Of a stretch of DNA of 64,000 nt, positions 1,924 through 26,830 are shown one piece after another. Position 1 is the stretch's first letter, and every line of letters starts with the position of its first letter. The notes beneath the pieces are model-generated. The model had not been told where the DNA came from. It did no database searches and saw only the letters and a program-made list of their open reading frames with translations. Source of the DNA: Amphiscolops sp. MND2022 (taxonomy: Eukaryota); assembly GCA_964187785.1 (NCBI GenBank), contig OZ076409.1:49478001-49542000 (forward strand). Reading direction: 5' to 3'. The translations under genes and the position numbers were made by a program.

Positions 1924-2064
1924 GGATGATATGAAAAATGACAAAAGTTTCATCTTTTCAGTTTCACAGGGGAGTACAAAACAACTCTATGGCCGCCATA
2001 GAGTTGTTTTGTACTCCCCTGTGAAACTGAAAAGATGAAACTTTTGTCATTTTTCATATCATCC
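1924..2064. repeat. Perfect inverted repeat (70-bp arms, 1-nt centre)
   Basis: ggatgatatgaaaaatgac...ctctatggc-c-gccatagag...gtcatttttcatatcatcc reads the same on both strands around position 1994. Confidence 0.95.
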
Positions 2065-2272
2065 ACTCAGCATGTTTGTGTAGTGCGACTTTCAAAGTTT
2101 CCTTGTAAAAAACTTGAGTGAGCCAAAGTGAAAATAATATATATTTGAACGGTTGTTTTTTTAACTTCATGCAAAATTGGGATGTTTTCGGAAATGTTAA
2201 GATCCAAGAAAGTGAATTGCAAAACTACCAGCTACTTATTCGACATTTGCGTTTGAAATGAACCAAGTTGTG

Positions 2273-2340
2273 AGGACCATCGTGTAGTGGATAAGGCGTT
2301 AGGCTTGTGTTAGTGAGATATCAGGTTTGAATCTCTCAAC
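2273..2340 (+). repeat. Degenerate tRNA-derived (SINE-like) head
   Basis: A-box-like tcgtgtagtgg and B-box-like ggtttgaatct at tRNA-like spacing, but no clean cloverleaf. Similar heads on the minus strand at about 30345-30432 and 47005-47075. Confidence 0.4.
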
Positions 2341-5300
2341 TCATCAAACTAGGGATTGGAGCAATCTCGTAATCTCCAGCTTAGTTGTATGGTTTTGGAG
2401 AAAAAATAAGAGAAGACAACAACGAGCGGTTAGACGTTTGTGACGTAGAGCAAAATTCAACCAGATGACCAAGCGTCTATAACTATGATACTATGCCTTG
2501 CTTTGGGTAGATGGTACCGAGAAAAGTACCATTTTTGTAAGGTAAAAATAGGCCAATCCCAGACACCGCTTATTTCGGGAATTGGTTTTTTCTTTTTTTT
2601 TCCAATTCTAGACAGTTTTTGGCATTCGAATTGCATTTTTTGAACGTTTACAAGGGTACTAGTTTCCACACAGTTCAACGACAAAGTAATTTGGTTCTCG
2701 ATGCGTTCTTAAATTAAGTGTTTCTTTTCAAAATGGAAAAAGGTGAACCGAAATTTGTCAAAACTTTCATTTTTTTCAAATTTCTCTACATTTTCATAGT
2801 CCATTGAACACTCTCGAGCATTAAACGTATGTCGTTGCGAGAACAGGTTGGGGCGGAAAATATCCCACTGGTCAGTGGGCGTCATATTGAGATGTTTAAT
2901 GCATCAAGTCATACTGCATATATGTCAATCAATAAAATTACTGACTCCTTGTAGGAACGTGGGCAAGAAAAGTGGACTTGAAACTGTTATTCAACGGGGC
3001 TTTTTCCACAGACTTTGCTTTTGTCCCGAACGCTCCAATAATCAATATTTGAAAGTAGTTGAAATATACATTACTGTACTCGGCATACATAACCTCAATG
3101 CCAATTCGGTTAATCCATGTATCCTTACGACGGCATGTCTTGAACGTGTGGGATCGGTACCACAAAGAATGTAGCATTTATATGTAACGTTTTTATACAA
3201 ATCATGTGAAAAAATTTGTTTTCAAGGCTTTTGTTGCTCTAATTTACCTGAAAATATCTTGTTTGAAAATATTTAGCTGATTGCAGACTGAAGTGATATG
3301 TATTAGACACAATGGCTCTCGGTATTTTTGAGTAGTTTTGAAAATTGAGTCTAATACAAAAAAAATGAGTCGAATGAACCTGAGCCTTTCCTTTTTTGTT
3401 ACATAGTTACGTCACACAAAATGACGTCACAATGTTTTGTAGACTCCTCCTTCCCATTTCGAAAAAAAAAACAATTTATCCGGAAGATTATGAATCTGAG
3501 CAAGGGCTTGAAGAGAAAACTGTTGAAAAACAGAAAATTCAAGAAATCTTAGAATTTTAAAACTGAGTTGTACTCCATAATTATCCCTTTTTACCCCTTC
3601 AATTACGTTTTTATTACTATGTTGTATACACTGCCTCTTAAAATAGAAAATGATTTTTAATACTATTTTAATACTATTTTAAGCAGGAAATAGTGTTTTT
3701 TTCACATTCAACGTTTGTTGGAACTAACAACTGGTAACCTTTTCTCATGTGTACCTTGTTTTTCGGCCTTCAAAGTCGACTGAATGCTATCCCGTCATAA
3801 AAAATAGAGCAAACAGTTCTTTTTCACAGCATGGAAGTAAAAATAGAAGCATTTGCGTTTTCCTTTTGAAACGTGTTCATATATCTTCCTTCGAGTTAGT
3901 AAAAATTAATATTTTCTGCCACACTGGATTTGCTGTCATTATGAGATTTCAGTCATTTATGCAGACAAGAAGCCTTGTTTTGGAGACAGCTGATATTATT
4001 TTCAGGTGACCAAATACCATTATCCTGATATGCCGAAACTCTGTGTTACCAGGTAGCGTTGGAAGCGGTTATGGGAAACGTTTTCGAACACTATTTGGCT
4101 GACGTAAAAGGTCGTAGCGCTTGTGGAAGAGTGAAGTGACGGAAATTGGACATGAAAATATTCATTTTCATCTGATCGAATCAAGCCCTAACAAAACTCA
4201 AGAATACCATTTTTGTCTTTGCCCATTTTCTACAGCTGACTTTTGAATTGAACATGGTAACCCACGTTCAGCATAATTTTGAATCTTCTACATTGTAGCT
4301 TAAAAGAGAGCCACTTAGTTGCACCATGAAGAAAAAAGCAAGGAACGGCCAGACTCGGCATCCCACTCAAGGTTCAAAAAAGTGAAGTTTGTAAAAAAGA
4401 CACTATTGTAAATTTTCCATCAATTTCGCAGTGCCAAAAAATCCTCGAAAGGATACCCATTAGACTCGAAAACAACTTTTTCCCGACTGGAAAAAGAACA
4501 AAACACGTTTTTTGGGAAAAAACAGGTTTTTTTTCGGAAAAGTCTGATTACCAATTAAAACAGCAAAACGCTTTTTCCAAGCGAAAAACTTTTTGAAAAG
4601 TGAAAGTACTATTTCACCGGAAGAGAACAGTTTCAAAACAACCCACAGTGCCGAAAAAGCCGTACTTCGTTTGCATAATTGTTGAGAAAACTTTCATCAG
4701 TCGCACAACTAAAAACAATCAGAGTTCACACTTAAACTGGAAAAGTGGTCTTGCTCAGCCGAAAACCTCTCAAAAAACAAAAAAAATGAGGAAACAAATA
4801 TTTCCGCATAGTGCTGAAAACCCAAAGTTCTCAATGCTCACAAAAGATTGTGTTTCTGTAAAATTTGAGGGAGGCAATTCGATGAAAACAAATTAGAATT
4901 AAGTCAGAAAGTACCGAAAAAATGCCCGTCTCAAAAAAAAACAAAATTCGGATTAAGCGCTTTGTTTTTGATATAGCGCAACATCCACCTACTCCTTAGT
5001 AAAAAGCAATTTAATTTGGATATACTGTCTAAATTCTGACATTACGCAATAGTTTCGAACCACTATTCCCTCTTTGGTAAAACGCACTTTACTTCGGATA
5101 TAACCTTGAAAGTTCGGATATAACGTGCATGTACAAATGGGAGCGCTTTTTCTGAATCTTCGCTCTTTCCTGAGTAGTACGAATTTTACTACGGATAAAA
5201 CGGACTTTTTCGGATATAGAGTGCTGGACCAAATACGAACACTTTTATCGAACCTTCAACTCCTTTACTCCGCGTTGAACTCCAGAAGTTTGGATATAGC

Positions 5301-7609: not shown

Positions 7610-7863
7610 AAAAACCTGGCTGCATTTTTTTGAGACTCATAAATCCGTTGCTCAAAATTGAAGTCCTAGGATTAATAATAATTTCAGCGCCTTGTTGAAG
7701 AACTTTCCACCTTTGCCGAGCGTCTTATCATAAAAATTTTTATGATAAGACGCTCGGCAAAGGTGGAAAGTTCTTCAACAAGGCGCTGAAATTATTATTA
7801 ATCCTAGGACTTCAATTTTGAGCAACGGATTTATGAGTCTCAAAAAAATGCAGCCAGGTTTTT
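7610..7863. repeat. Perfect 254-bp palindrome (127-bp arms, no spacer)
   Basis: Centre cataaaaa|tttttatg at 7736/7737. Arms are complementary out to aaaaacctggc...gccaggttttt. A partial third copy of the arm lies at about 8126-8190. Confidence 0.95.
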
Positions 7864-9376
7864 AAAATATTATTTATTTATTATTATTTATATTTATTTT
7901 AAAATAAATCAGACACTAAACCCGAGCTCGAATTTGTTCATAAAAGCTTCGAAGATTTGGATATTTCACGGGCTATGTATCTAAGAGTCAAAAACTAACT
8001 TGATGAACTCATCAGGCAAAAGCGTCTTAAGACCAGGATTCTTAACCGTGTTGACTCTCCAGGCAAACATGCAGGTAAACATGCAAGAAAGGCACGTAAC
8101 AAGAATGGTTTAGTGTCGGATTTATTTTTTATGATAACAAGACGCTCGGCAAAGGTGGAAACTTCTTCAACAAGGCGCTGAAATTATTATCTCATACTGC
8201 GAAACGTGAATCGTCAAAATTTTGAGTTTTTTGTGGCTATTTTTGAGTTAATCAATGCTTCAATATAGTGGATTCATATTTTGAGCACAAAATATTTATA
8301 GAGAATTAAAAAAAAACTGATTCGGTTTAAATGAGAGTATTCATCTAAGTTTAAGTTCATTTAGAGATTAATTGTACACCTTATTCAGACCTGAACTGAA
8401 GATATTAAAAAAGTTATTACCACACAAAATTTGGGCAATAGGGAATTGCTGGCATCGAAAGAGCAGGTAATGTTTGAGCTCATGTTTTGGCATGTCGACT
8501 TGTGATCATCGTTCGCTTCAGTGTCCAAAATACCTGAAACATTAAAGCATAGTCAGAGAGCTTTATTTACATTAATTACATTAAATTTAGAGACAAGATT
8601 AATGCGACTAAAAGAGTGAAGCAAAATACGTTCCTGCAAGATGTCACGGTGTTACGCAACGAATTTGAAATTTGTGTGATCGTTTAAATTTTAAAAACAT
8701 TTTGCGATTTCGTTTCTCGGTGTCTTGCGTTTCGTAGTACGAATGTAGTTCTTAAATGTTTTTTTTCCACACATTCGTGGCTTCTCTAGAGAGTCAATCA
8801 GGAGTGCCTATAATGTCTGGTTATCAATTAAAAGATTAATCTAGACTGAAGAGCTTCTCAATTAGGGACAAAACACAAAATTAAGAAGATTTGAGACAAT
8901 TTGATACAAAATGCTAGGTGTTTTTAACCGGCGCAATTTCCTTTAGGGAAAAAAGTCCGACTATTACAGTTGTTCTAATCTCAACAACTAAGCTTCTAAT
9001 TTAAAGGAGAGGGTTAAGATAATTTCTATATGTATAGTTCGGCAACTATATCATAAGTACCAAAATGTATATAATGGTAAATCTAATTAAGTATGTAGCA
9101 AAAGTTCTGTTTGTAAATAAACATGGTAGGCTAGACACATAATAGAGTGTGAAGTTCTTTGAACCGAAACTCGGTAGAGGTCAAACCGGAATGAACCGAA
9201 TATGACAATAGTGACTAGTTTTTTGTCATAATGTATGGTAACAGAATGTATGTGAGGTGAACACTCTATACAGAACTAAAATACTGGACCAGCGAGCATC
9301 TAAATTAGTGCAAAGGATCCCCCTTTCATTTATTACACTTTAACGTAAGATACAAAACAGGACAAGACTATAGGGT

Positions 9377-11473
9377 TGTCACGACCCGCTCCCGGTCGGG
9401 ATTATTCTTGCTGCAGTGGCGTGCCGGGATTCAAAAGGGGGAGAGGACACGGAAGGCCTAAGCAAAGCTAAGTAAAATACTGAACTTACCTTGTCTAAAC
9501 TACAGCACGAACTAAGGATTAACGGAAGCGCAACGTGAAATATCCAAAAATGATCTTGAGCAAAATAGGATTTCTGATTTAAAGTTTTCACATGTAATCA
9601 CTTTACTACATCCGGTTTTGTTTCTGAAAAATCCATGACAATCTAAATACTAAAAAGAAACATTCATAACACTGTGATCAATTCTCGTCCTCTCCACACT
9701 GAAATGAAAACATTAGTTAATACCGTGGTCCCAACGGAATGCATGTGATCTAAAATAAGGAAAATACAGAGAGAATTTAATAGACTTGTTTCCAAAGTCT
9801 GAAGTAGTTGTTAAAAGCCACTCAAATTACAGTCAAGTAATTTGAATAAACCTTTACAACGCTATGGCAACGTCAATCAGATAAACAAGTTGCTAGTATT
9901 CCTAATTTAATGAACCAATAGCGTCGCTGCTAAGGACGGAATGTTTGCGCTCGAGCTAGTAAGGACCATTCTAATGACGTCATTAAGAACGAATTTAAAG
10001 ATGGCGAATTGCTCCGCTCTAACTTCGCTAGCTACTAAGCTAATCTTAATACGTACGTAGCATCTACGGGACGAATTGTAAGCTAAAGAAACTATAGCTA
10101 ATCTTAATACGTACGTGACATCTACGGGGAAGATTGTAACTTGGCAAAACTATACTTAATGTTAATACATGCAAAATAACTGTGGAAAAATCTGAGACTT
10201 AGGGACTAATGCAGTATATCAGGACATTCCTTGGAACACGTAGAATTTTGTTAGGACAACCAAAATATTGTAGGATTCAATTATTTCCTCCCGATTTTCC
10301 TCTGTTCTTTAAGCAATCTAAACGTTCGTGCTGTAGGACCAAGGCAAAAGTGAATTTCTTAATGGAAGGTGCTTTTCTTACTTTTAAGAAAATGATTTAC
10401 GTACTCAGTACGTCTTAAAATGTTGTTGCTTTCCACGTTGTTTGTTATTTTGTAACCATGTTTGATAGTATCATGTAAAAATCACGCAGGTTTATCGTTG
10501 CCAATTTCTGGTTTATAATAACCAAATTTCAGTTTGTATTCGTCACTTTCTCGGTATCATTTGTTCCTTATCAAACATTTGATTTCAGTAATCCAAAAAC
10601 TTAACCGAAATATTTCCGTGACGAATTTCACTTGTTACTTTGTTGCTGCAAGTTGAAAATCTTGCCGCTCATAAGATGAATCATTGTTCATGCCCGCGTG
10701 CCTTTCGTGATGGAAGTTTAACTAGACATTTATTTTACCGCTCTTTTGAGATTAAACCGGAAATGAGGATGATGAACAAAAATGAATTCAACAAGTACTC
10801 CGCAAAAGGGACGTGACTAGGAATTTTAAATTATGAACAACTAGTTAAAGGGTTGAAATAATAAGGATGACTAAGTGATTTTTATGAACAAAATGGATTT
10901 TTAGGATTCCTAGGAATTTTTAGGTGAGGAACAAATGATGCTGAGAAGGTATATATAGTTGTAGATACTTTGAAAAATCAATCCAATCTTTTGTTTCCCA
11001 ATTAATCAATTTGTTCTGTTGATACAATAAAGCTCGCTTCTTCGACGAATTAACATATTTCCGAAGACTTCTCTACCATAAACTTTCAAAGATGACTACT
11101 AGAAGCCAGAAAAGAAAAGCGGTTGAAGAATTAGTCTCTACTGAAATCGAAACACCGGTTCCAGAAATTAGTCTGAGCGAAAATCCCGTAGCGGGAACAA
11201 GCAAATCTCCTAGAGTCATTTCTGAAAACCTAGAAAATATTAAATCGGCTCTTAGAAAAGAGATAATGACTGATCTTACTAAAATCTTAGCCGAGAACCA
11301 GAAGGAGATGCTAAAACTGATAGCTCCAGTAACTAAAAAACAAACCCTAGTTAGAGCTTCTGAAGAAACTGATTCTGATCCCGAGGACATCCCGGAAAAT
11401 GCAACATCAACACCTATAAAAACCAAATCCACTGCGACTACTAATAGGATTACCCCGGTAAATAGTCGTAACA
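9377..11473 (+). repeat. 5' LTR (2097 bp)
   Basis: TG...CA ends with an 8/9 inverted repeat; matches 23210-25306. Contains about 59-bp tandem units (10038-10175), TATATATA at 10950, AATAAA at 11026 and the gag ATG at 11092. Confidence 0.97.
10950..11031 (+). promoter_or_regulatory. Putative LTR TATA box and polyadenylation signal (U3/R/U5 boundary region)
   Basis: TATATATA at 10950-10957 followed about 70 nt later by AATAAA at 11026-11031. The same order occurs in the third element (62359 and 62376). Confidence 0.6.
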
Positions 11474-12504
11474 TGGTGACAGGAGTCCTCAATGACTCAA
11501 CGAACCTCGGAAAGAAGAAAACACGACCGCATCGCCCACAAAGTTTGCCACCCAACGAACGGCCTTCGACATCACGCCTACTCTTCGCTCCCCAACCGGA
11601 AATACACCAGCTGCCACACCTACCCCCAATGCCCAAAGCACTCACTGCATCATTGCCCGTATTCGATGGTAAGTCAGAAAAATTCGAACTTTTCGAGGAC
11701 TTATTCCGGAACAACATAAAAATGTACCCACACCTAACAGAAATTCAAAAAATCAACTATTTCCACTCACTGCTACGAGGCAATGCACTACAAGCATATT
11801 GCAACTTAGACGATGCCAAAAAAGATAACTTAGAGGAGGTAATTACGGCGTTTAAACGGCGCTTCGGAGATTTTCAATCTTCTGCCAAAGCGAGATGCGA
11901 ATGGGACTCGCTACATTTTGACCCAACCAAACAAAAATTACATGAATTTTTGGATACACTGCAAAAAACGGCTAAAGAAGCGTTCGGCTCTGAAGCACAA
12001 AAATTTATAGACAAGGCCATATACGCCAAAATGCCAGACCACGTCAAAAAGATCCTCAACCGAGCCTACCTCGAGGACAAACCCTATAATGATATTGTCC
12101 TACATCTCGAACGAGAGATGCGCCTTAACGGTCTAGGAGCCCCAGACGAAACCACACTAGTACCACTAAATACGGTCGACGTCGTCCCATCGGAACCAAA
12201 AAAGGAACTCACCCAACGAGGAAGTTGCTTCCACTGTGGTAAACAAGGACACTATAAAGCACAATGCCGCAAATTAAGAAAAGATCGTTACTATGAAACT
12301 AAAACACAGAACGCTGTCCCCAAAACCATTGAACCACCCAAACCAAAGTGCGACACTTGCGGGAAGCTCCACAAAACCGAGAACTGCTGGTACGGAGCTA
12401 ATGCGGCGAATGACCCCAGGAAGAAACGTCATGAATTCACAATACCCACTAGCCAAATCAGCGAACAACCAATCCCCACTGTTGAAATTCAGTCAAAAAA
12501 CTAA
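11092..12504 (+). CDS. gag: Gag polyprotein (470 aa); first 127 codons lie inside the 5' LTR
   Basis: Capsid-like LPVFDGKSEKFELFEDLF...LRGNAL region, CCHC knuckle CFHCGKQGHYKAQC and a second knuckle CDTCGKLHKTENC; lies directly upstream of pol. Confidence 0.95.
   Translation: MTTRSQKRKAVEELVSTEIETPVPEISLSENPVAGTSKSPRVISENLENIKSALRKEIMTDLTKILAENQKEMLKLIAPVTKKQTLVRASEETDSDPEDIPENATSTPIKTKSTATTNRITPVNSRNMVTGVLNDSTNLGKKKTRPHRPQSLPPNERPSTSRLLFAPQPEIHQLPHLPPMPKALTASLPVFDGKSEKFELFEDLFRNNIKMYPHLTEIQKINYFHSLLRGNALQAYCNLDDAKKDNLEEVITAFKRRFGDFQSSAKARCEWDSLHFDPTKQKLHEFLDTLQKTAKEAFGSEAQKFIDKAIYAKMPDHVKKILNRAYLEDKPYNDIVLHLEREMRLNGLGAPDETTLVPLNTVDVVPSEPKKELTQRGSCFHCGKQGHYKAQCRKLRKDRYYETKTQNAVPKTIEPPKPKCDTCGKLHKTENCWYGANAANDPRKKRHEFTIPTSQISEQPIPTVEIQSKN
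11474..11488 (+). promoter_or_regulatory. Primer-binding site (probably complementary to a tRNA-Leu)
   Basis: TGGTGACAGGAGTCC immediately after the LTR-terminal CA; an identical 15-mer occurs at 62733. The tRNA-Leu assignment is inferred from resemblance to known Leu acceptor ends. Confidence 0.8.
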
Positions 12505-12548
12505 AAACGCCGCGCCTCCGCTTCGGGGAAACGGTAGACGCGAGGGCG
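12495..12548 (+). promoter_or_regulatory. -1 ribosomal frameshift signal (A_AAA_AAC plus GC-rich stem-loop)
   Basis: Heptamer at 12495-12501 directly before the gag TAA. The -1 frame is open from there into pol. Downstream cgccgcgcctccg-cttcgg-...cggtagacgcgagggcg can fold into a hairpin. Confidence 0.85.
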
Positions 12549-12590
12549 TACACAATAGAAGACCCCCCAAATCGCTATGAAGAAGACTTC

Positions 12591-15500
12591 ATGACAGAAT
12601 GCAACGAAGAACCGACACAGGACTGGCAACGTCGTTGGAACGTAGGCATGATCCTCAGACACAATGCACGACACCCAGAAGACCCAACACCACTACCCCA
12701 ATGGATAACAGAATCGCCTGATAACTACGCGACACTAAAAAGACCCCTACCAGAATCAAAGACCGAACGCATCTACATATATGACAAAGACTACAGATGT
12801 GACCCCTGGGATGAACCAGCCATCTATGACACAAACAAACTCTCTTTTAAGATCCAAGTTTCAAATCCTCAAGCTCAAGTTACCGAGAGTACAACCCTAC
12901 CAACACCTTTGTCACCAATCCTAAAAAAGACGTCACAGTCCTCGCCAGTACCCGTCACCACCACGTACACACCAATAGATGCAGAGAATATTATCTGCAT
13001 CGAAGACAAAACAATATGGTCACAACAAGCAAAAGAACAACGAGGAGTAGCTGACCAAACAGTTTCACCCCCAACAACAACATCTGAATGGCCAAATCAG
13101 AACAACAACCACGAAGACGACGAAGTAACGGAATGCCCACAACAACTGCCATACGATCTCAACATCATAAGAGAATTCATACAACATGATAAAGATGACG
13201 ACTACATTCCGTTAATGTCGGCAATTACCCTCAAAAAGAAGAAAAGAATGCTCTTTATTCCTCTCGACTTTGAAAACACTAGAATTGATGCATTAGTCGA
13301 CTCGGGAGCCTACATCAACGTCATCAGTGAAAGAGATGCAGACAAGATACAAACTGAAGCCAACGCAACCATAATCGCGAAAGCACCTCCGCCCCCTTTC
13401 AAGATACAATATGCCAATACAGAACTCGAAAAAGCCCGTGCAACATACACAATGCAATTCAAAATCGGGGATTACGCGTTCGAGGAGACTTTCATCATCA
13501 TGACCAAAACCTCCTACCCAATCATTGGCCTGGCATTTCTCCGGAAACATTCCGCAATCCTAGACACTGCACAAGGAACAATAGACTTTCCCAAAATACA
13601 AATCACTCTAGCCCTAAAAGATGAAAGACAGAAGTGTAATCCCAAACCCATCACTATCAAAACGGAAGAAAAACACACCATACCAGCACAAGCCACGCGG
13701 ATTATCCACGCGTCCATCACTGCAAGCAACGACCACTCAATAACTGGGACAGTTCAACCCCTACCGCAGTTCGACGAAAATGCAAAACTTATAGTAGCCC
13801 CAGCAATAACAACAGCCCGAGACAAACGAGTAGCAATAAAAATAGCGAACACCACAGATTTCCCCTATACAATAACGCCACATACGAAACTAGCAGAATT
13901 ACAAATACTGAAACCCGAAGAAACGAAACTAATACGAGCAGTAGACATAGCAGCCCTCAATCTACTTACCGAACATGACGACGTTGTTGCGTACGTTAAT
14001 GCACTCATGCAAGTTGATTCGTCAGACCAAACAGAAGAGAAATTCTGGTTTCCAACACCTGAAAATCCCGGAGACGAATCGGAACACACACCCATCCAGC
14101 AACGCATTCTACGAGAACTACGCGAACTACAAAGACTAGAAGAACTGGACCCCAAACAAGATGAAAAATCTAGAACACAATTCCTCTCGCTATTTAAATG
14201 GAATGATTCACTAATAACGGGAGAGGACCGCGAAAATCTAGAGTCCACATTAGTCGAATTCAATGACATTTTTGCACGTCACCGACTAGATATCGGAATG
14301 AACAACCAGTTCAAGGTATCCCTAACTCCCAAAAACGACAAACCGGTATATACACAGAGTCTCCCCGTACCCATCAACCTCAAAGACGACCTCACAGTAG
14401 AATTGGCACTGATGCACAAATACGGGATCATCACAACCCTCCCATTCTCGAAATATGCCAGCCCCATCTTCGCGCAACGCAAACCCAACGGAAAACTACG
14501 GCTCCTAGTAGACTTACGGAAAATCAACGCCCTCATCTCAGATGACTACATAAATAACAACCACCCCATCAGCACCCTCTCGGACGCCGCGCAACATCTA
14601 GCAGGAAAGCAACTGTTCTGCAAACTAGACTGCTCACAAGCCTATCACTGCCTCCAAATGGCAGATCAAAGGTCAGTAGAACTCCTTGCATTTAATTTTG
14701 CTAGTAGAACGTTTGCCTATCGTAGGCTAGCCCAAGGCCTTAGTAGAGCCTTGTCAGCTTTTTCGAGCTTCATGCGGGAATACCTCGACACCGTCATCAA
14801 AGCAGACCAGTGTGCCCAATACGTAGACGACATCGGAATTGCCGCCAACACAACGGAACAACTCATCAAGAATATCAGAGCAGTCTTCAAATGCATCCGC
14901 AAGGCAGGACTAAAACTCACAATTGAAAAATGCCACTTTGGTGTCACCCAAATCGAATTCCTAGGGAGAACCATCACACCCCACGGAGTAGCTCCGCAAG
15001 AACACAAAATCACCAACTTCTTATCAAAAATCAGATTTCCCCGGTCAAAGAAACAAGTCCAGAAATACATTGGATTCATCAACTACTACCGAAACTACAT
15101 ACCAAGACTGTCTGAAAAAATGATTGGGATGTATGAACTCCTAAAAGCAGATGCCAAAATCACCATATCAGAAGAATTAGTCGACAACTTCAAAGCCATC
15201 AACGCGAGCCTAGCGGAAGCATGTGGGTTAGCCCTCAGACAACCAGTTGCGGGAAAACAATACGTACTAATGACGGACGCAAGCTTCCGGGCATCAGGTT
15301 ACGCCCTGATGATAGAAGAAAACGACGATAAAAAGCTACTCTCCAAACGGAAAACTTTCGCACCGGTCGCTTTCGGCTCCCGCGTATTCTCGCCGTCACA
15401 ACTGAAGATGTCGATATACTGTAAAGAATTCCTCGCAATATATCATGCATTCCTCGAATATAGTCACATTCTCTGGGAAACAACACTACCTACACTAGTA

Positions 15501-17711
15501 CTGACAGACAACAGGTCAGTAACGAGATTTTTCCAGACGAAAACAACGCCACCCGCTCTCTGGAATGCCTGTGACTACGTACTACAGTTCAAATTTCGCA
15601 TCATGCACGTAGCTGGCTCGCAAAATACAGCAGCTGATTTCCTGTCTCGCCTCGAATTAACTCCAAAAGAGAGAATCCAACTCAAATTGAGAGACGACAT
15701 CATAACAGCACCCATCGAGGTTAACCTACAGTCTACAGATGTTGCAGACGAAGAACAACTCTTTTTCCTACCAGACGAAGAAGAGGAATCAGAACAAGAA
15801 ATTTTCGCCAGGAAAGCCCTTAGCAAACAACGAGCAATAGACGAAAAGGAACAACAAAACTTGACAACGGAAGTCACTGAAACAGTACACATACCTCTCA
15901 ACTCAGCAGTATACGCTTTTGGAGCCATCAAGGAAAACGCCCGCATCCGCAACGAACAAGACGCAGACCCGATATTGAAAGCATTGAAACTACGGCTGCT
16001 TCACGAAGAATACGACAAACACCTTCTCAAGACAGAACCCAGAGGACGAAACCTACTACGTCACGAAGAAAGAATAATAGTCAAAGACGGAGTACTCATG
16101 CGTAAATACTACGGACAAGATGGCACAGTAACACATCACCAAATCCTCATACCAAAACATATAGTGCCAGAACTCCTATCGACACTACATGGAAAAATGA
16201 ACAAACACCCAGGAATAACCAAAATGATTCAGGAAAGCCGAGCAAAGTACTACTATCCGGGACTAGCGCGGAAAATTAGAGCCTGGGTAATCAACTGCCC
16301 AGATTGCATCGCCAACAAACGAATTGACACGCGCCAAATACGCCCTAAAATGCTGAGTAACACAGAATTCACATTCGGACCAGAAGATTGCCTAGAAGTC
16401 GATATACTACCAAATCTACCCTCATCAAACGGCTACAAACACATCGTAACCATGATGGATGTTTTCTCCCGTTATTTATTCGCATACCCCACTCAAGACA
16501 TGACAGCCAGAACAGTCGGCCGATGCATAATTGACGTTATGACGCGTCATTGTTATCTGCCTACAGTGATGCTAACTGATAAGGGATCACAATTCCGATC
16601 AGATGTAGTAAATCAAATTGCACAGACACTTGACATCCGGATCAGCCACGCGTCAACAAAGCATGCACAAACAATCGGCATACTCGAAAGAACGCATGCA
16701 TCTCTGAAGACTTCCCTCAAGATATCAACGGGAGAACGCCGCTCAATGTGGCACAAATACGTTCAAATTGCAGTCATGAATTACAACACTAGCTACCACG
16801 AGAGCCTAGGATGTGAACCAACAACCGTATTTCACGGACGCATCCCGTACAACATTCTGGACATCAAGCTGGGACTCAAGCCAGAATGGAAAAAAGATGC
16901 CAACGAAGACCTAACGGACGAACTACAGAAGCAAATCGCTGAAATCCACCAGGCAGCCAAGGACAACCTCATGCAATCATATTTGAAGTACAAGCGATAT
17001 TATGATAAAAAAGCGACAGCAACGCCATTGAAAATCAATGACTATTGCTACGTCCTGAACCCGAAGGCTGATAACCAGTCAATAAAATTCGCTTTCAAAG
17101 ATTGCATTTGGACAGGACCATATATAGTGGTCAAAGTCCTTTCCAATAACAATTACGTCGTAAGACGGACAGGAACTAGATATACGCAAACCCTCCATAG
17201 AATTCGCCTAAGGCTATATGCGCCCAATCAACGAGTACCTGACGTAACAGTCAAAGTGGAAGATCAACTTCCAGATCCCGAGGTTAAAACAACCCATGAT
17301 GATTGGTACGCGCAAGCTTGGGAAACCGAATTCGGAGAAGTTCTGTTCGGAACCCCAACGGAAAACGACAATGAAGAAGCTACTATCACGGAAGTACAAA
17401 ATGCAGACGGAGATACAACGGACCATGAAACAGCTACAACAACTGCAGATGAGAATACAATGATGGATAAAACATCCTCCGGAGATAACACGTCATTCAA
17501 TTTAGACGTCAGTGATAACCCTTTCATAATGACCCCGCCGCCTACAGAAAGTCCCCCAATACCGCCTACATTGCCGCCTATAGTTGTCGGATACAATCCT
17601 AGAAAAACGGGAAGATATAACCTACGACCTAATCCTAGACCTAATGCACACCCTGATTTTCGGATGCTCGACGCTATCACTACGGAAGAGAATTCTCAAC
17701 CTCAACACTGA
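12591..17711 (+). CDS. pol: Pol polyprotein (protease, RT, RNase H, integrase); probably expressed as a Gag-Pol frameshift fusion from about 12498
   Basis: Uninterrupted 1706-aa ORF with ALVDSGA (protease), YVDDI (RT), LMTDAS (RNase H), HHCC zinc finger H..HPG...CPDC, integrase core EVDIL/TDKGSQF/GILER, and a WTGPY motif. Confidence 0.98.
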   Translation: MTECNEEPTQDWQRRWNVGMILRHNARHPEDPTPLPQWITESPDNYATLKRPLPESKTERIYIYDKDYRCDPWDEPAIYDTNKLSFKIQVSNPQAQVTESTTLPTPLSPILKKTSQSSPVPVTTTYTPIDAENIICIEDKTIWSQQAKEQRGVADQTVSPPTTTSEWPNQNNNHEDDEVTECPQQLPYDLNIIREFIQHDKDDDYIPLMSAITLKKKKRMLFIPLDFENTRIDALVDSGAYINVISERDADKIQTEANATIIAKAPPPPFKIQYANTELEKARATYTMQFKIGDYAFEETFIIMTKTSYPIIGLAFLRKHSAILDTAQGTIDFPKIQITLALKDERQKCNPKPITIKTEEKHTIPAQATRIIHASITASNDHSITGTVQPLPQFDENAKLIVAPAITTARDKRVAIKIANTTDFPYTITPHTKLAELQILKPEETKLIRAVDIAALNLLTEHDDVVAYVNALMQVDSSDQTEEKFWFPTPENPGDESEHTPIQQRILRELRELQRLEELDPKQDEKSRTQFLSLFKWNDSLITGEDRENLESTLVEFNDIFARHRLDIGMNNQFKVSLTPKNDKPVYTQSLPVPINLKDDLTVELALMHKYGIITTLPFSKYASPIFAQRKPNGKLRLLVDLRKINALISDDYINNNHPISTLSDAAQHLAGKQLFCKLDCSQAYHCLQMADQRSVELLAFNFASRTFAYRRLAQGLSRALSAFSSFMREYLDTVIKADQCAQYVDDIGIAANTTEQLIKNIRAVFKCIRKAGLKLTIEKCHFGVTQIEFLGRTITPHGVAPQEHKITNFLSKIRFPRSKKQVQKYIGFINYYRNYIPRLSEKMIGMYELLKADAKITISEELVDNFKAINASLAEACGLALRQPVAGKQYVLMTDASFRASGYALMIEENDDKKLLSKRKTFAPVAFGSRVFSPSQLKMSIYCKEFLAIYHAFLEYSHILWETTLPTLVLTDNRSVTRFFQTKTTPPALWNACDYVLQFKFRIMHVAGSQNTAADFLSRLELTPKERIQLKLRDDIITAPIEVNLQSTDVADEEQLFFLPDEEEESEQEIFARKALSKQRAIDEKEQQNLTTEVTETVHIPLNSAVYAFGAIKENARIRNEQDADPILKALKLRLLHEEYDKHLLKTEPRGRNLLRHEERIIVKDGVLMRKYYGQDGTVTHHQILIPKHIVPELLSTLHGKMNKHPGITKMIQESRAKYYYPGLARKIRAWVINCPDCIANKRIDTRQIRPKMLSNTEFTFGPEDCLEVDILPNLPSSNGYKHIVTMMDVFSRYLFAYPTQDMTARTVGRCIIDVMTRHCYLPTVMLTDKGSQFRSDVVNQIAQTLDIRISHASTKHAQTIGILERTHASLKTSLKISTGERRSMWHKYVQIAVMNYNTSYHESLGCEPTTVFHGRIPYNILDIKLGLKPEWKKDANEDLTDELQKQIAEIHQAAKDNLMQSYLKYKRYYDKKATATPLKINDYCYVLNPKADNQSIKFAFKDCIWTGPYIVVKVLSNNNYVVRRTGTRYTQTLHRIRLRLYAPNQRVPDVTVKVEDQLPDPEVKTTHDDWYAQAWETEFGEVLFGTPTENDNEEATITEVQNADGDTTDHETATTTADENTMMDKTSSGDNTSFNLDVSDNPFIMTPPPTESPPIPPTLPPIVVGYNPRKTGRYNLRPNPRPNAHPDFRMLDAITTEENSQPQH

Positions 17712-17913
17712 ATAAAAACGATCAGAGAACCAAACCGAACCGGAGTGGCAACGGTAAATTTTCAACTCATAACTAAGCTACGCAAAACAATTGGACAACC
17801 AAGGTGCCCCGAAAGAATAAATCAAAGCATCACACAAGGCAGAGCCAAATAAATAAATAAAGCATCAAGAAACAACTCAACATCAAATCAACGATATCAT
17901 AGCATTATCTGTT

Positions 17914-20900
17914 TCATGGCTTTCCCAGTTTGTGAACGACGTCTGGATCACAGATATCACCTTTTTTGTTCTTCTTAGACCCCTTTGAACCACCAGCCCT
18001 GCTCTGTTTTGATGAAGCTGCTCCACTTCCTTTATCGCTACCTTTAACAGCCGGACGAACAACGGGCACATCCGCCTTCACAAATTTTGTAACTGATGGC
18101 TTATTGGTCGACTTCCTCGAACTAGCAACAGAACTCGCCACACTTCCAACCTCAGTTGAACTAGAACAATGTCTTTCACGAGCACTTCGATTCGCTTTGT
18201 TTGACTCCACATAAAATGCCTCGCACTCCTTCCGTCGCTCCGAGACATGACGACAATACAGCGATTCATAATGTTTAATGAACGCATCCATATCGCCCAC
18301 GCAGAAATCCCTCCACACGTCAAAGTCAGTAACCCTGAAGAAGTCACCAGCATTCAGAAGAGCATCACGGATAGCGGACAGGAGTGAACCAGAAAAGAAT
18401 AACCGAGCATTAAAACTAGGCCCGATAATATGGGATTGCACCATCAAAATGCACTCTTGCAGAACAGACGACTTCAGCGTGCTACCACCCAAATCTATCG
18501 TCACAGCAGGAGGGTCACTCTTCGGCAATCCAACGAAAAGGCAACATAACTTGAATAGCCGAAATACGTGGACTCGGGACTGAAATGCAAAATCCCGCAA
18601 CAGGAAACTAATGACATCATCAATGTCACTCGCAGCACACGTAGCATCCTCGTGATGTCGCCGTTTCTCAATGACATAACTTTTAAACTCAGCAGAAGCA
18701 GCATTCAAATCGTCCGGTGTCATAACACGACAAGATCTCAACAAATCACAGAGGGAACCAAACAATTCGAATATGTGAAGATCATCGCCCTCCAACATAA
18801 TTTCAGGACAGAAGCTGTAGAGTCCGCGAGAAATACCAGAAGTAACAGCAGTGCTTGTCACAATTAGTGAGACAACACGATCAATACATTCACGACACTT
18901 CACCCGAAAATCTTGCACGTCGCCAGTCTTGATTGCAGACAATCCTCGCCCAAACTCACTATGCATTAAGAATTCGCTCATAGAAATCTGATCGAACCCA
19001 GAGAGTTTTGAAACATCCATATAACTCTCCCACTCATGTATCCCAGGCAAACTGGACAACTTGCGAGTCCGCATCAGGAGGCAATAAACGAAGTTACAGA
19101 CCTCGCCGTAACCATGGAAGGCGTAATCTTTACGGCCTTGACGAAGCTTCTCAAAGTTGAAGTAATCTAAAACGAAACACCCTCGTCAACAAACACACAT
19201 CTTGCCTCCAGGACACAGCAATCAACAGAAATTGAACGCAATAGCACCAACACAATAAAGAAAGCCAATCAACAAAAGACAACAGCCAATTGAAAGACCA
19301 TACTCCTAACGAAACGTCTCCGTACTTACAAGAATCCAACAGCAGCCGAAGGAAGCCAAAGCGATGCACAATGAGACTGTCGGAGACCAACTCGAAGTCC
19401 GTACCACGCAACTGAAATAAATAACACACCATCAAAATCAAATAGCAAAAGAGGAAGACAAGCAACTATAACCGAAGAAAAAAAAAACACGGAAACACGA
19501 AGATCGAACGGAAAAACAACCAAGAAAATTACAATGTAACAGCACTCACACGATCAACGGTACTCTTGAAATGCGGATGTCCCGTGTACCGAATGAAGGG
19601 ACGTATGGAAGGCCACAGCTCAATCAGATCACTTAAGATCTCCCGCAAGTCGCAAAAGGCCACAGAACCCGCACGTATGGTTGCACGCAGAAGAGGCTTG
19701 TCCTCGCTCCAGTCTTCATACAGAGCCCCTTTCAACCGATGGATTATATACTCCACTGCTGTTGTTATCTCAATCATTCCGAAAATATCCTGGTGAGCTT
19801 GGCGAAAGCACTGCAAAAACACCTCTTCATCAAAGGACTGCCAAGACACAAAGCGACGATCATCAGTTCTCCCTGCGTCCAGCACCCGAAACAGCGAAGG
19901 ACTGGCACCACAAATAGATACGGGCATCTGTTGCCCCTCCAAGCAGTTCACAACTCGGGCCAACGGAAGCAATTCAGGGGCAGGCATCCTTTGGTCGAGA
20001 GTCTCATTGCCCACACAAATCTTTTTCAAAACAAGCCCGTCCCAGCACAGAACATAGCACCGTTCGACATGACCAGACTTCTCAAATTGCACCCCGTACT
20101 CCTTAAAGGCCTTGATGTTGCTAATCATCAGCCGAAGAACCCGAGGGGCCAGCCCTTGACAAAGAAACGACTAAAATACGTACAACCGACCTCACTCCCA
20201 AATTACTGAAAATCATCATCCCTCCCCCACACGAACAAACTACGAAATTAAACTGGCGTAAAAAGAAGGAAAGAAACGAAAAAGAAGAGAAAACAACAGA
20301 CTAACCACAGTCTCCGAACGGCTCCAACGCAAAGGAAAACACGGCTCCCGTTCGCCCAAAGTTGCACAAAAATGGCCCCACAGACGACGAAGGTAGTCGA
20401 AGTCGCCACCATTACGAAGAAACTCGAAAAAGCAGGAAACCAGGGTCATGAAGGGCACATTTGAATCAGGCTTAGAGTGTTTGGGAACCAAGTCTTCTGG
20501 AAATGGGTACTCTTCACCCAGGTCACAAAAGGGCCGTGACTTGTAATCCGCCAGCTGTCTCTCTGACAATTCCATTGGTTCCATCAAACGGTTCAAAACT
20601 TGCAACCCCATGTGGACGCGATAGGTTACGTCTTTGAACCAATGGGCATCTGATTGGAAATGCCTCCTGAACTCGCCAACGCCCTGGGACTTCATGGCTA
20701 CATCACGTTGACAGACTCGACAATTGAAGTGGGTTCCCACACCCTTTTTGGAGCCCGTCACAAAATCGGGGAAGGCAGGATGACGACTCAACATCCGACG
20801 ATGGAGTATGTTGCGACTACCATACGTCTTCACCACTTTCTTCGTCAATTTTTTCTCGACCCTTCCGCTGAACTCCTGCAACTCTGTAAAACAAAATACA

Positions 20901-22031
20901 AAAATAGGCGCACAGATGAAACCCAAATTCCGAACCACACAACTGCCCGCAACAGCGTAGCCACCGAACACACACCGTTCAACCGAAAACCAAAAAATAC
21001 TAACCATTCTGGATAGCCAAACTGGTACCCTCCTTCACTTCTTCCACTAGCCGTTGACCAAGGCGTACCACGTCCTGAGGACTTAACATCACACCACCAG
21101 AGCGATACAGCTGCTCCTCATCGTTACCTGAAACAACAACGGATGTTTAATGGCAACTTAGAGAGAATATCACCCACCCGAAAAGTTCCTGACAAAATAT
21201 GACAAACTATTCCCTTTTTTCTTCTTCCTTCCTCCAGCACCACAGAGGCAAACCAAACAACAAATGCGAAAAACAACACACTAACTAAGCCAGTTACCAG
21301 CAGCATTCATCAATGGTGGAGGAGACGGTGGCAATAACACAACCTTCTTCCCACGTTTTGAAGGCGTAACGTCACCAACAGAAGCGTCAGCCGAATTATC
21401 TCCGCGCAGAACTATAATATCAAATATACTCTGGTGCTACCACCTACATGACGTAAACATGACGCCAAAAGCAAACCTCACCAACCTGTTTTCCTCTTGC
21501 TGGGGGGATCTGTCTCACCTCCTTGAGACTCACTATCGCTGCTAGTAGCGACAACAAGGCGAGTAACAGGACTACTAGTCTCGGGGAGAGTATTGGCAAC
21601 TTGAGGAGAAACCTCAGAGCAAGAAGCGACAACTCCGGAAGCACACAATACACTGGTCAACGCATCATTGACGCTGCAAGTAGACTTGGGCGGCAGAATA
21701 GTTGAAACCGACGGCAAAACATTAGCAACAGTGGAAGATACGCCCGTAGCAGGCACGGAAACAGTCACTGTCGGGATGCCAGGTTGAGCTACTGAAAATC
21801 AAGATCTGGTTTGACGCGTCAGGGTTACGGGTAAAAGACTACAAAAGGCTGATCACCAAAAGAATAGTCAAAATACCCATGAAAGTCAGAAAGATTTTAC
21901 CAACCTGAAGAAGTAATAACAGCATCTACATCTGAGAAAACCACATCATCATCAGTATAGCAGAAATTTGTCTCGTTTCCACTCACAGTACCAGCGACTG
22001 CACCAGATGAAGGAACAACAGCGTCGTCCAT
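17914..22031 (-). CDS. Antisense gene with 8 coding exons inside the retrotransposon; predicted 1067-aa hAT-transposase-like zinc-finger protein, probably catalytically inactive
   Basis: Coding exons (minus strand): 22031-21905, 21791-21486, 21411-21298, 21127-21005, 20883-20306, 20170-19550, 19411-19330, 19166-17914. Seven GT-AG introns of 74-170 nt with pyrimidine-rich acceptors, all phase-compatible, give 3204 nt (1067 aa plus stop). Contains a CRVC...H...H zinc finger and hAT-like motif order. Confidence 0.85.
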
Positions 22032-22593
22032 AACTCGGAAGATTACAGAAGTCTTCAAGAGAATCTGAAAAAGAAGAAAACAAATAATCAAAGAAAAGAA
22101 AAGGAGAAAACTACGTCGTGCTCCCGTAAAATTTTGGAAAAAATAACAACATCATCCCTGTGTGACTAAAGAAATGTACATATTTTAAACTTCAGTAAAT
22201 GCCCATTGCGGCACCGACGGGACAAAACGTTCCCACAAAAAATGCCACTGAAGAATCTAAATTCACCAGGAAGTTCTGAAGGAAAGCTTAACAAACTAAA
22301 ATTTACGAAAGATAGACGTTATTCTACCTAAAAGAAATGAATGATGTCATTGAACCGATGACCGAAAAGGAAACAGATACTAAATTAGAAGAGTTTTCCT
22401 AAAGCTACAACCAATCGCAGCGAAAGCGGAGAGGAAACGGCTCACCGAATTAGGTCGGACCGAAACGAAAATAAAAAATCAACCAATAGGATTGCAGCAC
22501 GAGGTACGAAAAGAAGATCACCAAACGGTCATTTGTCGTATAACTTTACAAAGAACAGCTTGTTCAGCTAAAAATCTCTACCAAACTATCGAA

Positions 22594-23304
22594 ATGGAAA
22601 GTTTTCATCAACGAAGCATCATCGACATTTCGTCTGATGAAGAAGCCACTCCGTTGCAGCAGAGTACTCCAATCAAGTACTACCCTTTAAACGTAGTGCA
22701 AGCCCTCAATTTGAGCGAAGAATCAACGACGGCTAAAATGGGAAGTGAATCCAGCATGGACATAACAGCGTCGACATTTGAGTCCGGCCCCTCCCCGTAT
22801 AAAAGAATCACTTTCTCAGCCACACGTGACGAAGAAAGAGAAGAATTCTCTGTGGAAAGGCCGCCGATAACAAACTCCGAATCAAGTTTTTATGAAGAAC
22901 TCGAGTCGTCTGATGAAATGCCCCGCCTAACTCCCGCACCCACTCTGAGAGAGGTGACGAATACGTCCCAAGAGGATTACGTCCCCCCTCCGAAGACGAC
23001 TAAACTAAATGATTTAGAAGAACTATCTGAAAATGAATTGGAAGACATCTGGGGTTTGAAGCCTAACGAGGATGACTTCTACTCGCTAGCTGGACGCGGT
23101 AGCAGCTTTACATCGAAAAAACTACAAAGGAACATCAGACAACCCGTGACGGTAGTGAAAGAAATTCCTCACTGCTCTGGTCTGCCAGCTTTTCGCGCCA
23201 GAGGGGCCCTGTCACGACCCGCTCCCGGTCGGGATTATTCTTGCTGCAGTGGCGTGCCGGGATTCAAAAGGGGGAGAGGACACGGAAGGCCTAAGCAAAG
23301 CTAA
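22594..23304 (+). CDS. Accessory ORF (236 aa from ATG 22594); acidic and S/T/P-rich, SIM-like IIDISSDEE, basic C-terminus encoded by the 3' LTR
   Basis: Long ORF in an otherwise stop-rich area; it crosses the PPT and the LTR start at 23210. The ATG context resembles that of gag. Confidence 0.6.
   Translation: MESFHQRSIIDISSDEEATPLQQSTPIKYYPLNVVQALNLSEESTTAKMGSESSMDITASTFESGPSPYKRITFSATRDEEREEFSVERPPITNSESSFYEELESSDEMPRLTPAPTLREVTNTSQEDYVPPPKTTKLNDLEELSENELEDIWGLKPNEDDFYSLAGRGSSFTSKKLQRNIRQPVTVVKEIPHCSGLPAFRARGALSRPAPGRDYSCCSGVPGFKRGRGHGRPKQS
23199..23209 (+). other. Polypurine-tract-like sequence
   Basis: cagaggggccc immediately upstream of the TG of the 3' LTR; short for a PPT. Confidence 0.55.
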
Positions 23305-25306
23305 GTAAAATACTGAACTTACCTTGTCTAAACTACAGCACGAACTAAGGATTAACGGAAGCGCAACGTGAAATATCCAAAAATGATCTTGAGCAAAATA
23401 GGATTTCTGATTTAAAGTTTTCACATGTAATCACTTTACTACATCCGGTTTTGTTTCTGAAAAATCCATGACAATCTAAATACTAAAAAGAAACATTCAT
23501 AACACTGTGATCAATTCTCGTCCTCTCCACACTGAAATGAAAACATTAGTTAATACCGTGGTCCCAACGGAATGCATGTGATCTAAAATAAGGAAAATAC
23601 AGAGAGAATTTAATAGACTTGTTTCCAAAGTCTGAAGTAGTTGTTAAAAGCCACTCAAATTACAGTCAAGTAATTTGAATAAACCTTTACAACGCTATGG
23701 CAACGTCAATCAGATAAACAAGTTGCTAGTATTCCTAATTTAATGAACCAATAGCGTCGCTGCTAAGGACGGAATGTTTGCGCTCGAGCTAGTAAGGACC
23801 ATTCTAATGACGTCATTAAGAACGAATTTAAAGATGGCGAATTGCTCCGCTCTAACTTCGCTAGCTACTAAGCTAATCTTAATACGTACGTAGCATCTAC
23901 GGGACGAATTGTAAGCTAAAGAAACTATAGCTAATCTTAATACGTACGTGACATCTACGGGGAAGATTGTAACTTGGCAAAACTATACTTAATGTTAATA
24001 CATGCAAAATAACTGTGGAAAAATCTGAGACTTAGGGACTAATGCAGTATATCAGGACATTCCTTGGAACACGTAGAATTTTGTTAGGACAACCAAAATA
24101 TTGTAGGATTCAATTATTTCCTCCCGATTTTCCTCTGTTCTTTAAGCAATCTAAACGTTCGTGCTGTAGGACCAAGGCAAAAGTGAATTTCTTAATGGAA
24201 GGTGCTTTTCTTACTTTTAAGAAAATGATTTACGTACTCAGTACGTCTTAAAATGTTGTTGCTTTCCACGTTGTTTGTTATTTTGTAACCATGTTTGATA
24301 GTATCATGTAAAAATCACGCAGGTTTATCGTTGCCAATTTCTGGTTTATAATAACCAAATTTCAGTTTGTATTCGTCACTTTCTCGGTATCATTTGTTCC
24401 TTATCAAACATTTGATTTCAGTAATCCAAAAACTTAACCGAAATATTTCCGTGACGAATTTCACTTGTTACTTTGTTGCTGCAAGTTGAAAATCTTGCCG
24501 CTCATAAGATGAATCATTGTTCATGCCCGCGTGCCTTTCGTGATGGAAGTTTAACTAGATATTTATTTTACCGCTCTTTTGAGATTAAACCGGAAATGAG
24601 GATGATGAACAAAAATGAATTCAACAAGTACTCCGCAAAAGGGACGTGACTAGGAATTTTAAATTATGAACAACTAGTTAAAGGGTTGAAATAATAAGGA
24701 TGACTAAGTGATTTTTATGAACAAAATGGATTTTTAGGATTCCTAGGAATTTTTAGGTGAGGAACAAATGATGCTGAGAAGGTATATATAGTTGTAGATA
24801 CTTTGAAAAATCAATCCAATCTTTTGTTTCCCAATTAATCAATTTGTTCTGTTGATACAATAAAGCTCGCTTCTTCAACGAATTAACATATTTCCGAAGA
24901 CTTCTCTACCATAAACTTTCAAAGATGACTACTAGAAGCCAGAAAAGAAAAGCGGTTGAAGAATTAGTCTCTACTGAAATCGAAACACCGGTTCCAGAAA
25001 TTAGTCTGAGCGAAAATCCCGTAGCGGGAACAAGCAAATCTCCTAGAGTCATTTCTGAAAACCTAGAAAATATTAAATCGGCTCTTAGAAAAGAGATAAT
25101 GACTGATCTTACTAAAATCTTAGCCGAGAACCAGAAGGAGATGCTAAAACTGATAGCTCCAGTAACTAAAAAACAAACCCTAGTTAGAGCTTCTGAAGAA
25201 ACTGATTCTGATCCCGAGGACATCCCGGAAAATGCAACATCAACACCTATAAAAACCAAATCCACTGCGACTACTAATAGGATTACCCCGGTAAATAGTC
25301 GTAACA
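23210..25306 (+). repeat. 3' LTR (2097 bp)
   Basis: Copy of 9377-11473. I noticed only two substitutions by eye (actagaC/Tattt and cttcG/Aacg). Followed by the TSD AGGGT. Confidence 0.97.
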
Positions 25307-25416
25307 AGGGTATCTCTTTGATTTTTTTCAGGTACTGTGCGACATTTTTTGATTTTTTTGTCTCACCTTCAAATTTTCAAATATTTTGCAACAAACTGGA
25401 GTTTCCAAAAGCCTAA
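24925..25416 (+). other. Chimeric ORF: 127 Gag N-terminal codons from the 3' LTR fused to 36 codons of flanking DNA
   Basis: Identical to Gag up to ...PVNSRN, then diverges exactly at the LTR end (25306). Confidence 0.8.
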
Positions 25417-25599: not shown

Positions 25600-26830
25600 G
25601 ACGTACCCGTTTCAAAATCCCTTTCTCTTAAAAGCAAGCTCCCAGCTATATTCTATATTTCCGGGATGACCCTGTCATTCATAACAGAACTAATTGCTCT
25701 ATTAATTTACTATGCATCATGCTCACCAATGAATACAACTCTTGAGAGAATCTTAAGTTCATATAACCGGATGATATGTCCATAGAATCTCCAAGTCTAT
25801 CCGGTCCAGAGGTATCATTCCTGCTTCCCATATTCTTTATTTCGTTTTCTTGAGATGAGTTTCTTATATGTGTGAGAATAGCATCATAGTCTTCCTGTCC
25901 AGAAGGTCCTCTCATTCTGTTTTCTAGTTCTCTCTCAATTGAATTTGAGTTGTTCTCCCCGTACTGAGACTCCATGGCATTCCATCCATGGCCATGGATG
26001 GTCCAGGCCTGGCCACCAATGGATCCAATTTGTAGGTGGTCATTGCAAATTCCATCGATGGCCATGGATGGTACATGGATGGTCCACCACTGGCCATCGA
26101 TGGAGTTTCGAAAAATTTTTCGAACAAAAATTCGTTCGAAGTGCGAAAATTCGAAATGTACGTTAGTAAATGCAAAATTTGAGTTGGCGAGTCACTCTGT
26201 AATAGAGAATGTCATTATAATGGATTTTTTCCTTGAACTCGTTCCTTGCTAGCTTCTCCAGTGTCGACAGTGTACTTTTTACCGGGCGTTTTAGAGAAAA
26301 ATGCCTTTATCATAGTTCCGATTATAGTTTTGAATGGAACTCATGAGATGCAATACTGATTTTTAAAGTTTTCATTTCAGTTTCTGACTAGGGCATTGCA
26401 GCGTTTTAATCTTACGTTGATTCAAAGACGACTCAAAATTTCAGAAAACGGAGCTTCTGTAAGCTGTTTTGAGCTTTCCGGACTTTTGGTTTCCAGGCCT
26501 GGCCAGGGATGGTCCATCCCTGGCCAGGGATAAAAGTGGCGATTGCCATCCCTGGTCCATCCATGGACCAGGCCTGGCCAGGGATGGAACTGCCATGGAC
26601 CATCCATGGCCATGGATGGAATGCCATGGAGTCTCAGTACGGGTCTGATAACATAATATCCTTATTTTCGTAGTTGGACAAGATGTCCTTCTCTCTAGAG
26701 CGTCTTGCTCTAGCCTTTTGTTTTGTTGTCGAAGTTTTCCTTTTTCAGATTAACAAAATGTTTTGAAAACATTTTAACCGTAAATTTGGTTACAATCACA
26801 GCGACAATAATCTCAATGGTGTCTTACCTC
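25600..26830 (-). pseudogene. Decayed coding-like sequence interrupted by the MITE; possibly the Gag N-terminus of another LTR element
   Basis: Removing the MITE joins ...KARARRSREKDILSNYENKDIML to ENNSNSIERE...SQEL.SLVSMMHS/INRAISSVMNDRVIPEI, with stops and frameshifts. Confidence 0.35.
25958..26643. mobile_element. Non-autonomous DNA transposon (MITE) with CCC...GGG termini, CMC/EnSpm-like
   Basis: Long TIRs cccgtactgagactccatggcattccatccatggccatggatggtcca and its reverse complement at the right end; subterminal ccatgg/ggatgg repeats; apparent 2-bp TSD tc. Confidence 0.8.

Follow-up and report, generated by a model that had tools for sequence, protein, structure and literature searches.

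A gag reading frame that begins inside the LTR in an abundant Ty3/Gypsy lineage

Introduction

In typical Ty3/Gypsy elements, gag starts downstream of the PBS. The LTR of Ty1, a copia-type element of Saccharomyces cerevisiae that uses a tRNAi-Met primer, is 334 bp long. The available part of one Ty1 study describes a GAG that starts in the 5' LTR and a PBS that is coding (PMC5454406), and a second, also available in part, describes an internal truncated Gag, p22 (PMC9283973). LTRs usually have TG..CA termini with short inverted ends, an AATAAA, and a weak TATA box, as outlined in the accessible portion of PMC3601003. For Tor, TSSs have been mapped in the 5' LTR, and the portion of that report available to us does not state whether gag is placed within the LTR (PMC4402516).

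A longer overlap can be read from the coordinates of insect Ty3/gypsy elements that carry an HSV/gB-type env and a tRNA-Leu PBS, for which the methods put the gag start ~3,000 nt into the extracted sequence (PMC13524379). In 13 of the 35 Leu_UAG_AAG rows of its supplementary file 1, the upstream LTR spans the gag start and ends 192 to 646 nt beyond it; this is our own reading of coordinates, and the rows covered are part of 1,512. The 13 rows come from bees, wasps, ants, and one beetle, with LTRs mostly of 1.4 to 2.4 kb. A 14th Leu_UAG_AAG row, whose LTR ends beyond position 3003 but also starts beyond 3000, was dropped, and the annelid and mollusc rows were left out, as the 3,000-nt offset seems not to hold there. 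Among the Leu_UAA_CAA_CAG rows, the LTR ends before the gag start in 15 of the 16 shown and overlaps it in 1. The available text of PMC13524379 makes no remark on an LTR-gag overlap, and the word "overlap" is absent from its main text.

A search of titles and abstracts, with Repbase and most older subscription papers outside its reach, turned up no paper that explicitly describes a gag start far inside an LTR. Repbase and older papers reportedly contain remarks on gypsy gag ORFs that begin in LTRs.

The element presented here lies in a window of 64,000 nt (the whole stretch of DNA that was analysed). Like Ty1, it has a gag ORF that is open from within the LTR through the PBS. The overlap in Ty1 is ~41 nt (13 to 14 codons, taking the LTR length given above) versus 382 nt including a whole predicted helix here, and Ty1 is copia-type with tRNAi-Met as primer, whereas ours is of gypsy type and probably primed by tRNA-Leu. 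It shares TG..CA LTRs with short inverted ends, an AATAAA and a weak TATA box, a putative PBS, a PPT, a 5-bp target-site duplication (TSD), gag followed by pol in the -1 frame, and the PR-RT-RH-IN order with typical Ty3/Gypsy elements (Metaviridae), but differs from them in a U5 that appears almost entirely coding. The insect elements carry env, whereas the scanned ORFs of our element gave no env match. Judged from sequence comparison, the layout is real, lineage-wide, and under-described, a longer form of the known Ty1-type arrangement. The principle is already known from Ty1, and the long form, which seems to recur in the insect elements, is probably recurrent among long-LTR gypsy elements.

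Results and Discussion

A young Ty3/Gypsy element

The element at 9377-25306 is a young Ty3/Gypsy LTR retrotransposon and a very recent insertion. Its main parts are as follows.

9377-11473, + strand: 5' LTR, 2,097 bp, TG..CA ends, 99.9% identical to the 3' LTR
23210-25306, + strand: 3' LTR, 2,097 bp, from self-comparison of the window
9372-9376 (left) and 25307-25311 (right), no strand: 5-bp TSD, the same 5-mer on both flanks
11092-12504, + strand: gag, 470 aa, with the capsid at about residues 183-346 and two CCHC-type knuckles
12486-17711, + strand: pol, PR-RT-RH-IN order, -1 frame relative to gag

Self-comparison of the window returned the LTR pair as one long direct repeat with mismatches only at positions 10727 and 11044. 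The Ty3/Gypsy assignment follows from direct TG..CA LTRs with a TSD, from the PR-RT-RH-IN order (Pfam positions 254-360, 665-830, 897-1030, and 1222-1391 of pol, respectively), and from a Gag with a capsid fold and CCHC knuckle. Gag matched DUF1759 (E 3e-10), Retrotrans_gag (E 0.0015), and zf-CCHC (E 0.015) in Pfam, and the top rows of a Foldseek search with Gag were retroviral, PNMA2, and dArc capsids, the best at E 0.013 and none at E ≤ 0.001. The Gag family is very abundant: of 8,000 candidates that were scored, 2,639 are relatives at E ≤ 0.001, and clusters reach 241 members.

An A-AAA-AAC heptamer directly 5' of the gag stop (12494-12504) is a probable -1 frameshift site; pol is in the -1 frame, and GC-rich sequence follows the heptamer. 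Pol also has an additional segment separating the protease from RT (~13640-13930, residues 385-480); it may be a dUTPase-like remnant, since 2 of 120 Pol relatives among the matches listed carry the dUTPase Pfam mark PF00692. The four longer ORFs of the region between pol and the 3' LTR (17914-23304) were scanned against Pfam and gave no env-like match; the four are antisense or S/T/P/D/E-rich.

The gag frame is open inside the LTR

The original prediction held that gag starts inside the LTR, and the gag ATG at 11092 does lie within the 5' LTR, 382 nt before its end, so that 127 codons and 1 further base are LTR-encoded. The features of this part of the LTR are given below.

10950-10957, + strand: TATA-like box, the sole TATATA of the LTR, putative promoter
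11026-11031, + strand: AATAAA that probably serves as the poly(A) signal, placed in R by motif
11092-11473, + strand: LTR-encoded Gag N-terminus, 127 codons, consisting of a basic M-T-T-R-S start motif, a linker, a helix, and a linker
11221-11322, + strand: predicted amphipathic or coiled-coil helix (AlphaFold2), Gag residues 44-77, fully LTR-encoded

No stop interrupts the gag frame in the 381-nt LTR part of gag, against 15 and 19 stops in the two remaining frames, and none of 5,000 dinucleotide shuffles was free of stops in the gag frame (mean, 9.05 stops), which together exclude chance as the source of the open frame. A weaker control, in which the whole LTR was shuffled and all six frames were read, left a run of 127 or more codons free of stops in 88 of 2,000 shuffles, and one of 150 or more in 16 of them. 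The codon-position bias of the LTR part of gag resembles that of pol and is unlike that of U3 (T1 0.08, and G1 0.28 versus G2 0.10).

The TATA-like box would place the TSS at ~10975-10985. From this box, the AATAAA, and the usual LTR anatomy, we place R at ~10980-11050 and U5 at ~11050-11473, and U5 would then be almost entirely gag. There is no ATG between the TATA-like box and 11092, which makes the gag ATG the first AUG past the box. A protein-coding U5, as had been proposed for this LTR, is well supported by the open frame, the codon bias, and conservation, its upstream border being set by motif, and the coding U5 is lineage-wide.

The layout in related elements

The window holds part of a second, diverged element with the same layout.

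62231-62732 (left border tentative), + strand: LTR of the second element, with TATAAA at 62359, AATAAA at 62376, and ATG at 62409

Its LTR|PBS junction is at 62732 and reads D-M-V-T-G, its Gag is 29% identical to that of the first element over 296 aligned residues, and the frame of this copy is broken near 62.5 kb, inside the LTR part. A third element came from metagenomes, where a profile scan found two loci: L001, with a 1,792-bp LTR bounded by a PPT and a PBS, and L002, which begins downstream of the junction. A scan of metagenome contigs with the single protein and a profile scan of viral contigs each returned 0 relatives. In L001 the ATG lies 388 nt inside the LTR, the three frames of that part hold 0, 6, and 10 stops, and the junction reads H-M-V-T-G. 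The layout of the first element recurs at the DNA level in L001 and, as a broken copy, in the second window element. The order TATA, AATAAA, ATG is common to all three elements.

In L001, a single LTR (1955-3746) sits between PPT and PBS, such that an internal 3' end is followed by the LTR and then by gag; this may reflect two elements in tandem with one LTR in common, a circle with one LTR, or a collapse in the assembly.

These three elements are those in which the layout was verified at the DNA level; for all other homologues the LTR end was read from the peptide. The census comprised 382 homologues (120, 119 with the window's own protein left out, and 143 new from a third list), drawn from the best 120 of 2639, the best 120 of 190, and the best 150 of 3218, with proteins from longest-ORF gene callers, which favour long open N-termini. 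Among these listed homologues, 159 of 382 have at least 89 aa before an exact MVT[GAVE] and 21 have 1 to 88 aa, 14 start at the junction Met, 60 do not contain the exact motif, and 128 do not contain the capsid anchor motif. In 179 of 180 listed homologues the junction Met is preceded by N, D, or H, residues that an x-A-C codon can encode, as an LTR ending in ACA would give in the gag frame. The length of the extension differs between subfamilies by whole codons. One of the proteins P0003-P0385 uses the other open frame at the junction (P0330), and we take it and the 14 junction-Met starters to be probably broken copies. A U5 can by this evidence be nearly fully protein-coding over ~100 to 134 codons, in an arrangement stable across Gag subfamilies that are 21 to 29% identical.

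The LTR-encoded N-terminus as a protein

AlphaFold2, run on an alignment of 25 sequences, predicted a helix at residues 44-77 (block pLDDT, 71 to 93) in a model with an overall mean pLDDT of 61.7 and a pTM of 0.27; residues 1-40, 81-128, and 130-176 were of low confidence, with pLDDT below 50 for the latter two. Conservation follows the same segments. Close relatives, 55 in number, matched the query at 97% of positions in residues 1-10, 51% in 11-43, 80% in 44-77, and 56% in 78-127, with 56% identity in the post-PBS linker and 95% in the capsid; the corresponding values in 18 farther relatives were 77%, 38%, 42%, and 28%, with 49% in the linker and 86% in the capsid. Within the helix, hydrophobic positions were more conserved than other positions (95% versus 73% in the close relatives, 58% versus 32% in the farther ones), and a heptad-like segment occurs at a similar place in diverged Gag subfamilies. 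The Gag N-terminus had no Pfam match better than E 0.038, no sequence match in the PDB, and no usable match in the Atlas. By analogy, and from its place ahead of the capsid, it could be described as matrix-like.

These observations bear on the alternative that Gag truly begins at the junction codon, Met128, with the upstream frame open by chance or through conserved cis-acting RNA or DNA elements. The capsid and knuckles all lie downstream of Met128, and the 14 homologues that begin at the junction Met would fit such a start, but stop depletion is specific to one frame in two elements examined as DNA, and both the whole-codon length variation and the residue-type-specific conservation of the helix are protein-level signatures. 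We regard this alternative as highly improbable and largely refuted.

The LTR|PBS junction and Met128

Where the LTR meets the PBS, the sequence has the following features.

11473-11475, + strand: junction codon Met128, formed by the last LTR base and the first two PBS bases
11474-11485, + strand: PBS, adjoining the LTR without a spacer, translated M-V-T-G, primer probably tRNA-Leu

The PBS is complementary in 11 of 12 nt to the 3' end of another animal's tRNA-Leu(CAA) (PMC13524379, supplementary file 3), and no exact tRNA match to it was found in the tables of that source. As predicted, the terminal CA of the LTR and the TGG of the PBS form an in-frame ATG; codon 128 starts at 11473 and opens the peptide MVTGV. 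All 25 aligned Gags, of 21 to 92% identity, keep M-V-T unchanged between flanks that cannot be aligned. A TGA in the PBS closes one of the three frames across the junction, another is translated HGDR, and the remaining one is the frame of this lineage.

The attachment site and PBS had been proposed to be under dual constraint, as DNA signals and as coding sequence. The DNA side of this proposal stands, since the bases are set by the integrase signal together with the tRNA complement, and the peptide N/D/H-M-V-T-G follows from them; the protein side does not find equal support, for the protein there is modelled as a low-confidence linker. The constraint at the junction is real and mostly one-directional, from DNA to peptide. 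The residues around it are probably a disordered linker that seems to require an open frame only. Two practical points follow from the junction: LTR ends become readable from the protein alone through the peptide N/D/H-M-V-T-G, and gag annotation restricted to the sequence between LTRs truncates the products, since the Met inevitably formed where LTR and PBS meet is then taken for a start.

The further suggestion that Met1 and Met128 give rise to two Gag isoforms did not find support. On this reading, a helix-less form starting at Met128, produced from an internal TSS in U5, by splicing, or by internal ribosome entry, would be regulated and would modulate assembly as p22 does in Ty1. There is precedent in the Ty1 protein, which in the available part of PMC9283973 comes from an internal transcript, and Met128 lies in frame within a good context (A at -3, G at +4) and is retained by 77 of the 78 close homologues of full length. 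However, both the conservation and the good context of Met128 are forced, because an LTR ending in CA and a PBS starting in TGG (the LTR end and the complement of the tRNA CCA) always give this ATG, and Met73 is likewise kept in 72 of the 78. Conservation of Met128 was for this reason rejected as a sign of its use. Counted from the TATA-like box, Met128 comes fifth among the AUGs (11092, 11266, 11308, 11399, and 11473), and leaky scanning to it was also rejected, given four AUGs upstream, three of them in frame with a purine at -3; a short protein would therefore have to come from a TSS inside U5, from splicing, or from internal entry. We consider regulated isoforms unlikely.

A model for gag expression and the fate of the LTR copy

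We think it very probable that the element belongs to a large Ty3/Gypsy lineage whose U5 became the first part of gag and in which ribosomes start at Met1. Transcription would start ~30 nt past the TATA-like box, the poly(A) signal (R) would lie in a leader of ~110 nt, and ribosomes would scan to the first AUG and initiate there, at Met1. In the sequence, the frame runs for 127 codons through U5, encodes the conserved start motif and the predicted helix ahead of the capsid, and then passes in one fixed frame through a linker of low complexity that spans the integrase attachment site and the PBS; we take Met128 for a by-product of CA|TGG and not a selected start. As expected consequences of such an arrangement, the Gag N-terminus would be copied in a minus-strand strong-stop DNA of ~490 nt, and every 3' or solo LTR would carry a promoter and a 127-codon Gag-N cassette open to host DNA.

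The 3' LTR of the element repeats gag codons 1-127 identically at 24925-25306, and the frame continues into the host flank to a stop at 25416, for a total of 163 aa. Solo LTRs of this lineage become candidate coding exons. It could be supposed that such cassettes are used, with read-through or solo-LTR transcripts giving Gag-N peptides or host fusions that join or poison particles as a form of copy-number control, or that seed host genes. The 3' copy is intact and has the same promoter-like motifs upstream, the predicted helix could oligomerise, and the family is very abundant, but the copy is an unavoidable outcome of LTR duplication and no Gag-N/host fusion gene was seen in the window, the only two tblastn matches being both LTRs of the element itself. 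We rate use of the cassette as quite unlikely. In an extended version, an abundant Ty3/Gypsy lineage would have moved a whole matrix-like Gag domain into U5, and a solo or 3' LTR would be a ready-made promoter plus exon for the Gag-N helix. The LTR peptides or the Met128 form would then act as dominant-negative regulators of the family's particles, a gypsy counterpart of copy-number control in Ty1, and as a source of fusion genes; this version seems unlikely to us. The reading in which U5 encodes the first part of a Gag started at Met1 is the one we adopt.

Other features of the element and window

An S/T/P/D/E-rich ORF approaches the downstream LTR both in the window (22594-23304, + strand) and in L001 (1315-2034, + strand). 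These ORFs, of 236 to 239 aa, read through the PPT and end 95 nt (window) or 80 nt (L001) inside the downstream LTR, with 0, 15, and 17 stops before the LTR by frame in the window and 0, 7, and 17 in L001. The two proteins have no significant similarity to each other (E 2.3). With gag at the upstream LTR and an S/T/P/D/E-rich ORF at the downstream one, ORFs cross both LTR borders.

Antisense ORFs of 423, 213, 264, and 106 aa lie between pol and the 3' LTR (17914-21798, - strand) and resemble the exons of a single spliced gene. A CxxC...HxxxxxH motif in one of them is BED-finger-like. The antisense ORFs had no convincing Pfam match, and the Atlas pointed only weakly to the hAT dimerisation family, at 0.90 and with recognition that stayed below threshold.

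Elsewhere, the window contains two perfect palindromes, at 7610-7863 (127-nt arms) and 1924-2064 (70-nt arms), and perfect inverted arms of 48 nt at 25958-26643. Dispersed MITE-like repeats with GGGGACCC-type motifs (families D1, D5, D6, and D9) occur in many copies and in both orientations across 5983-52154.
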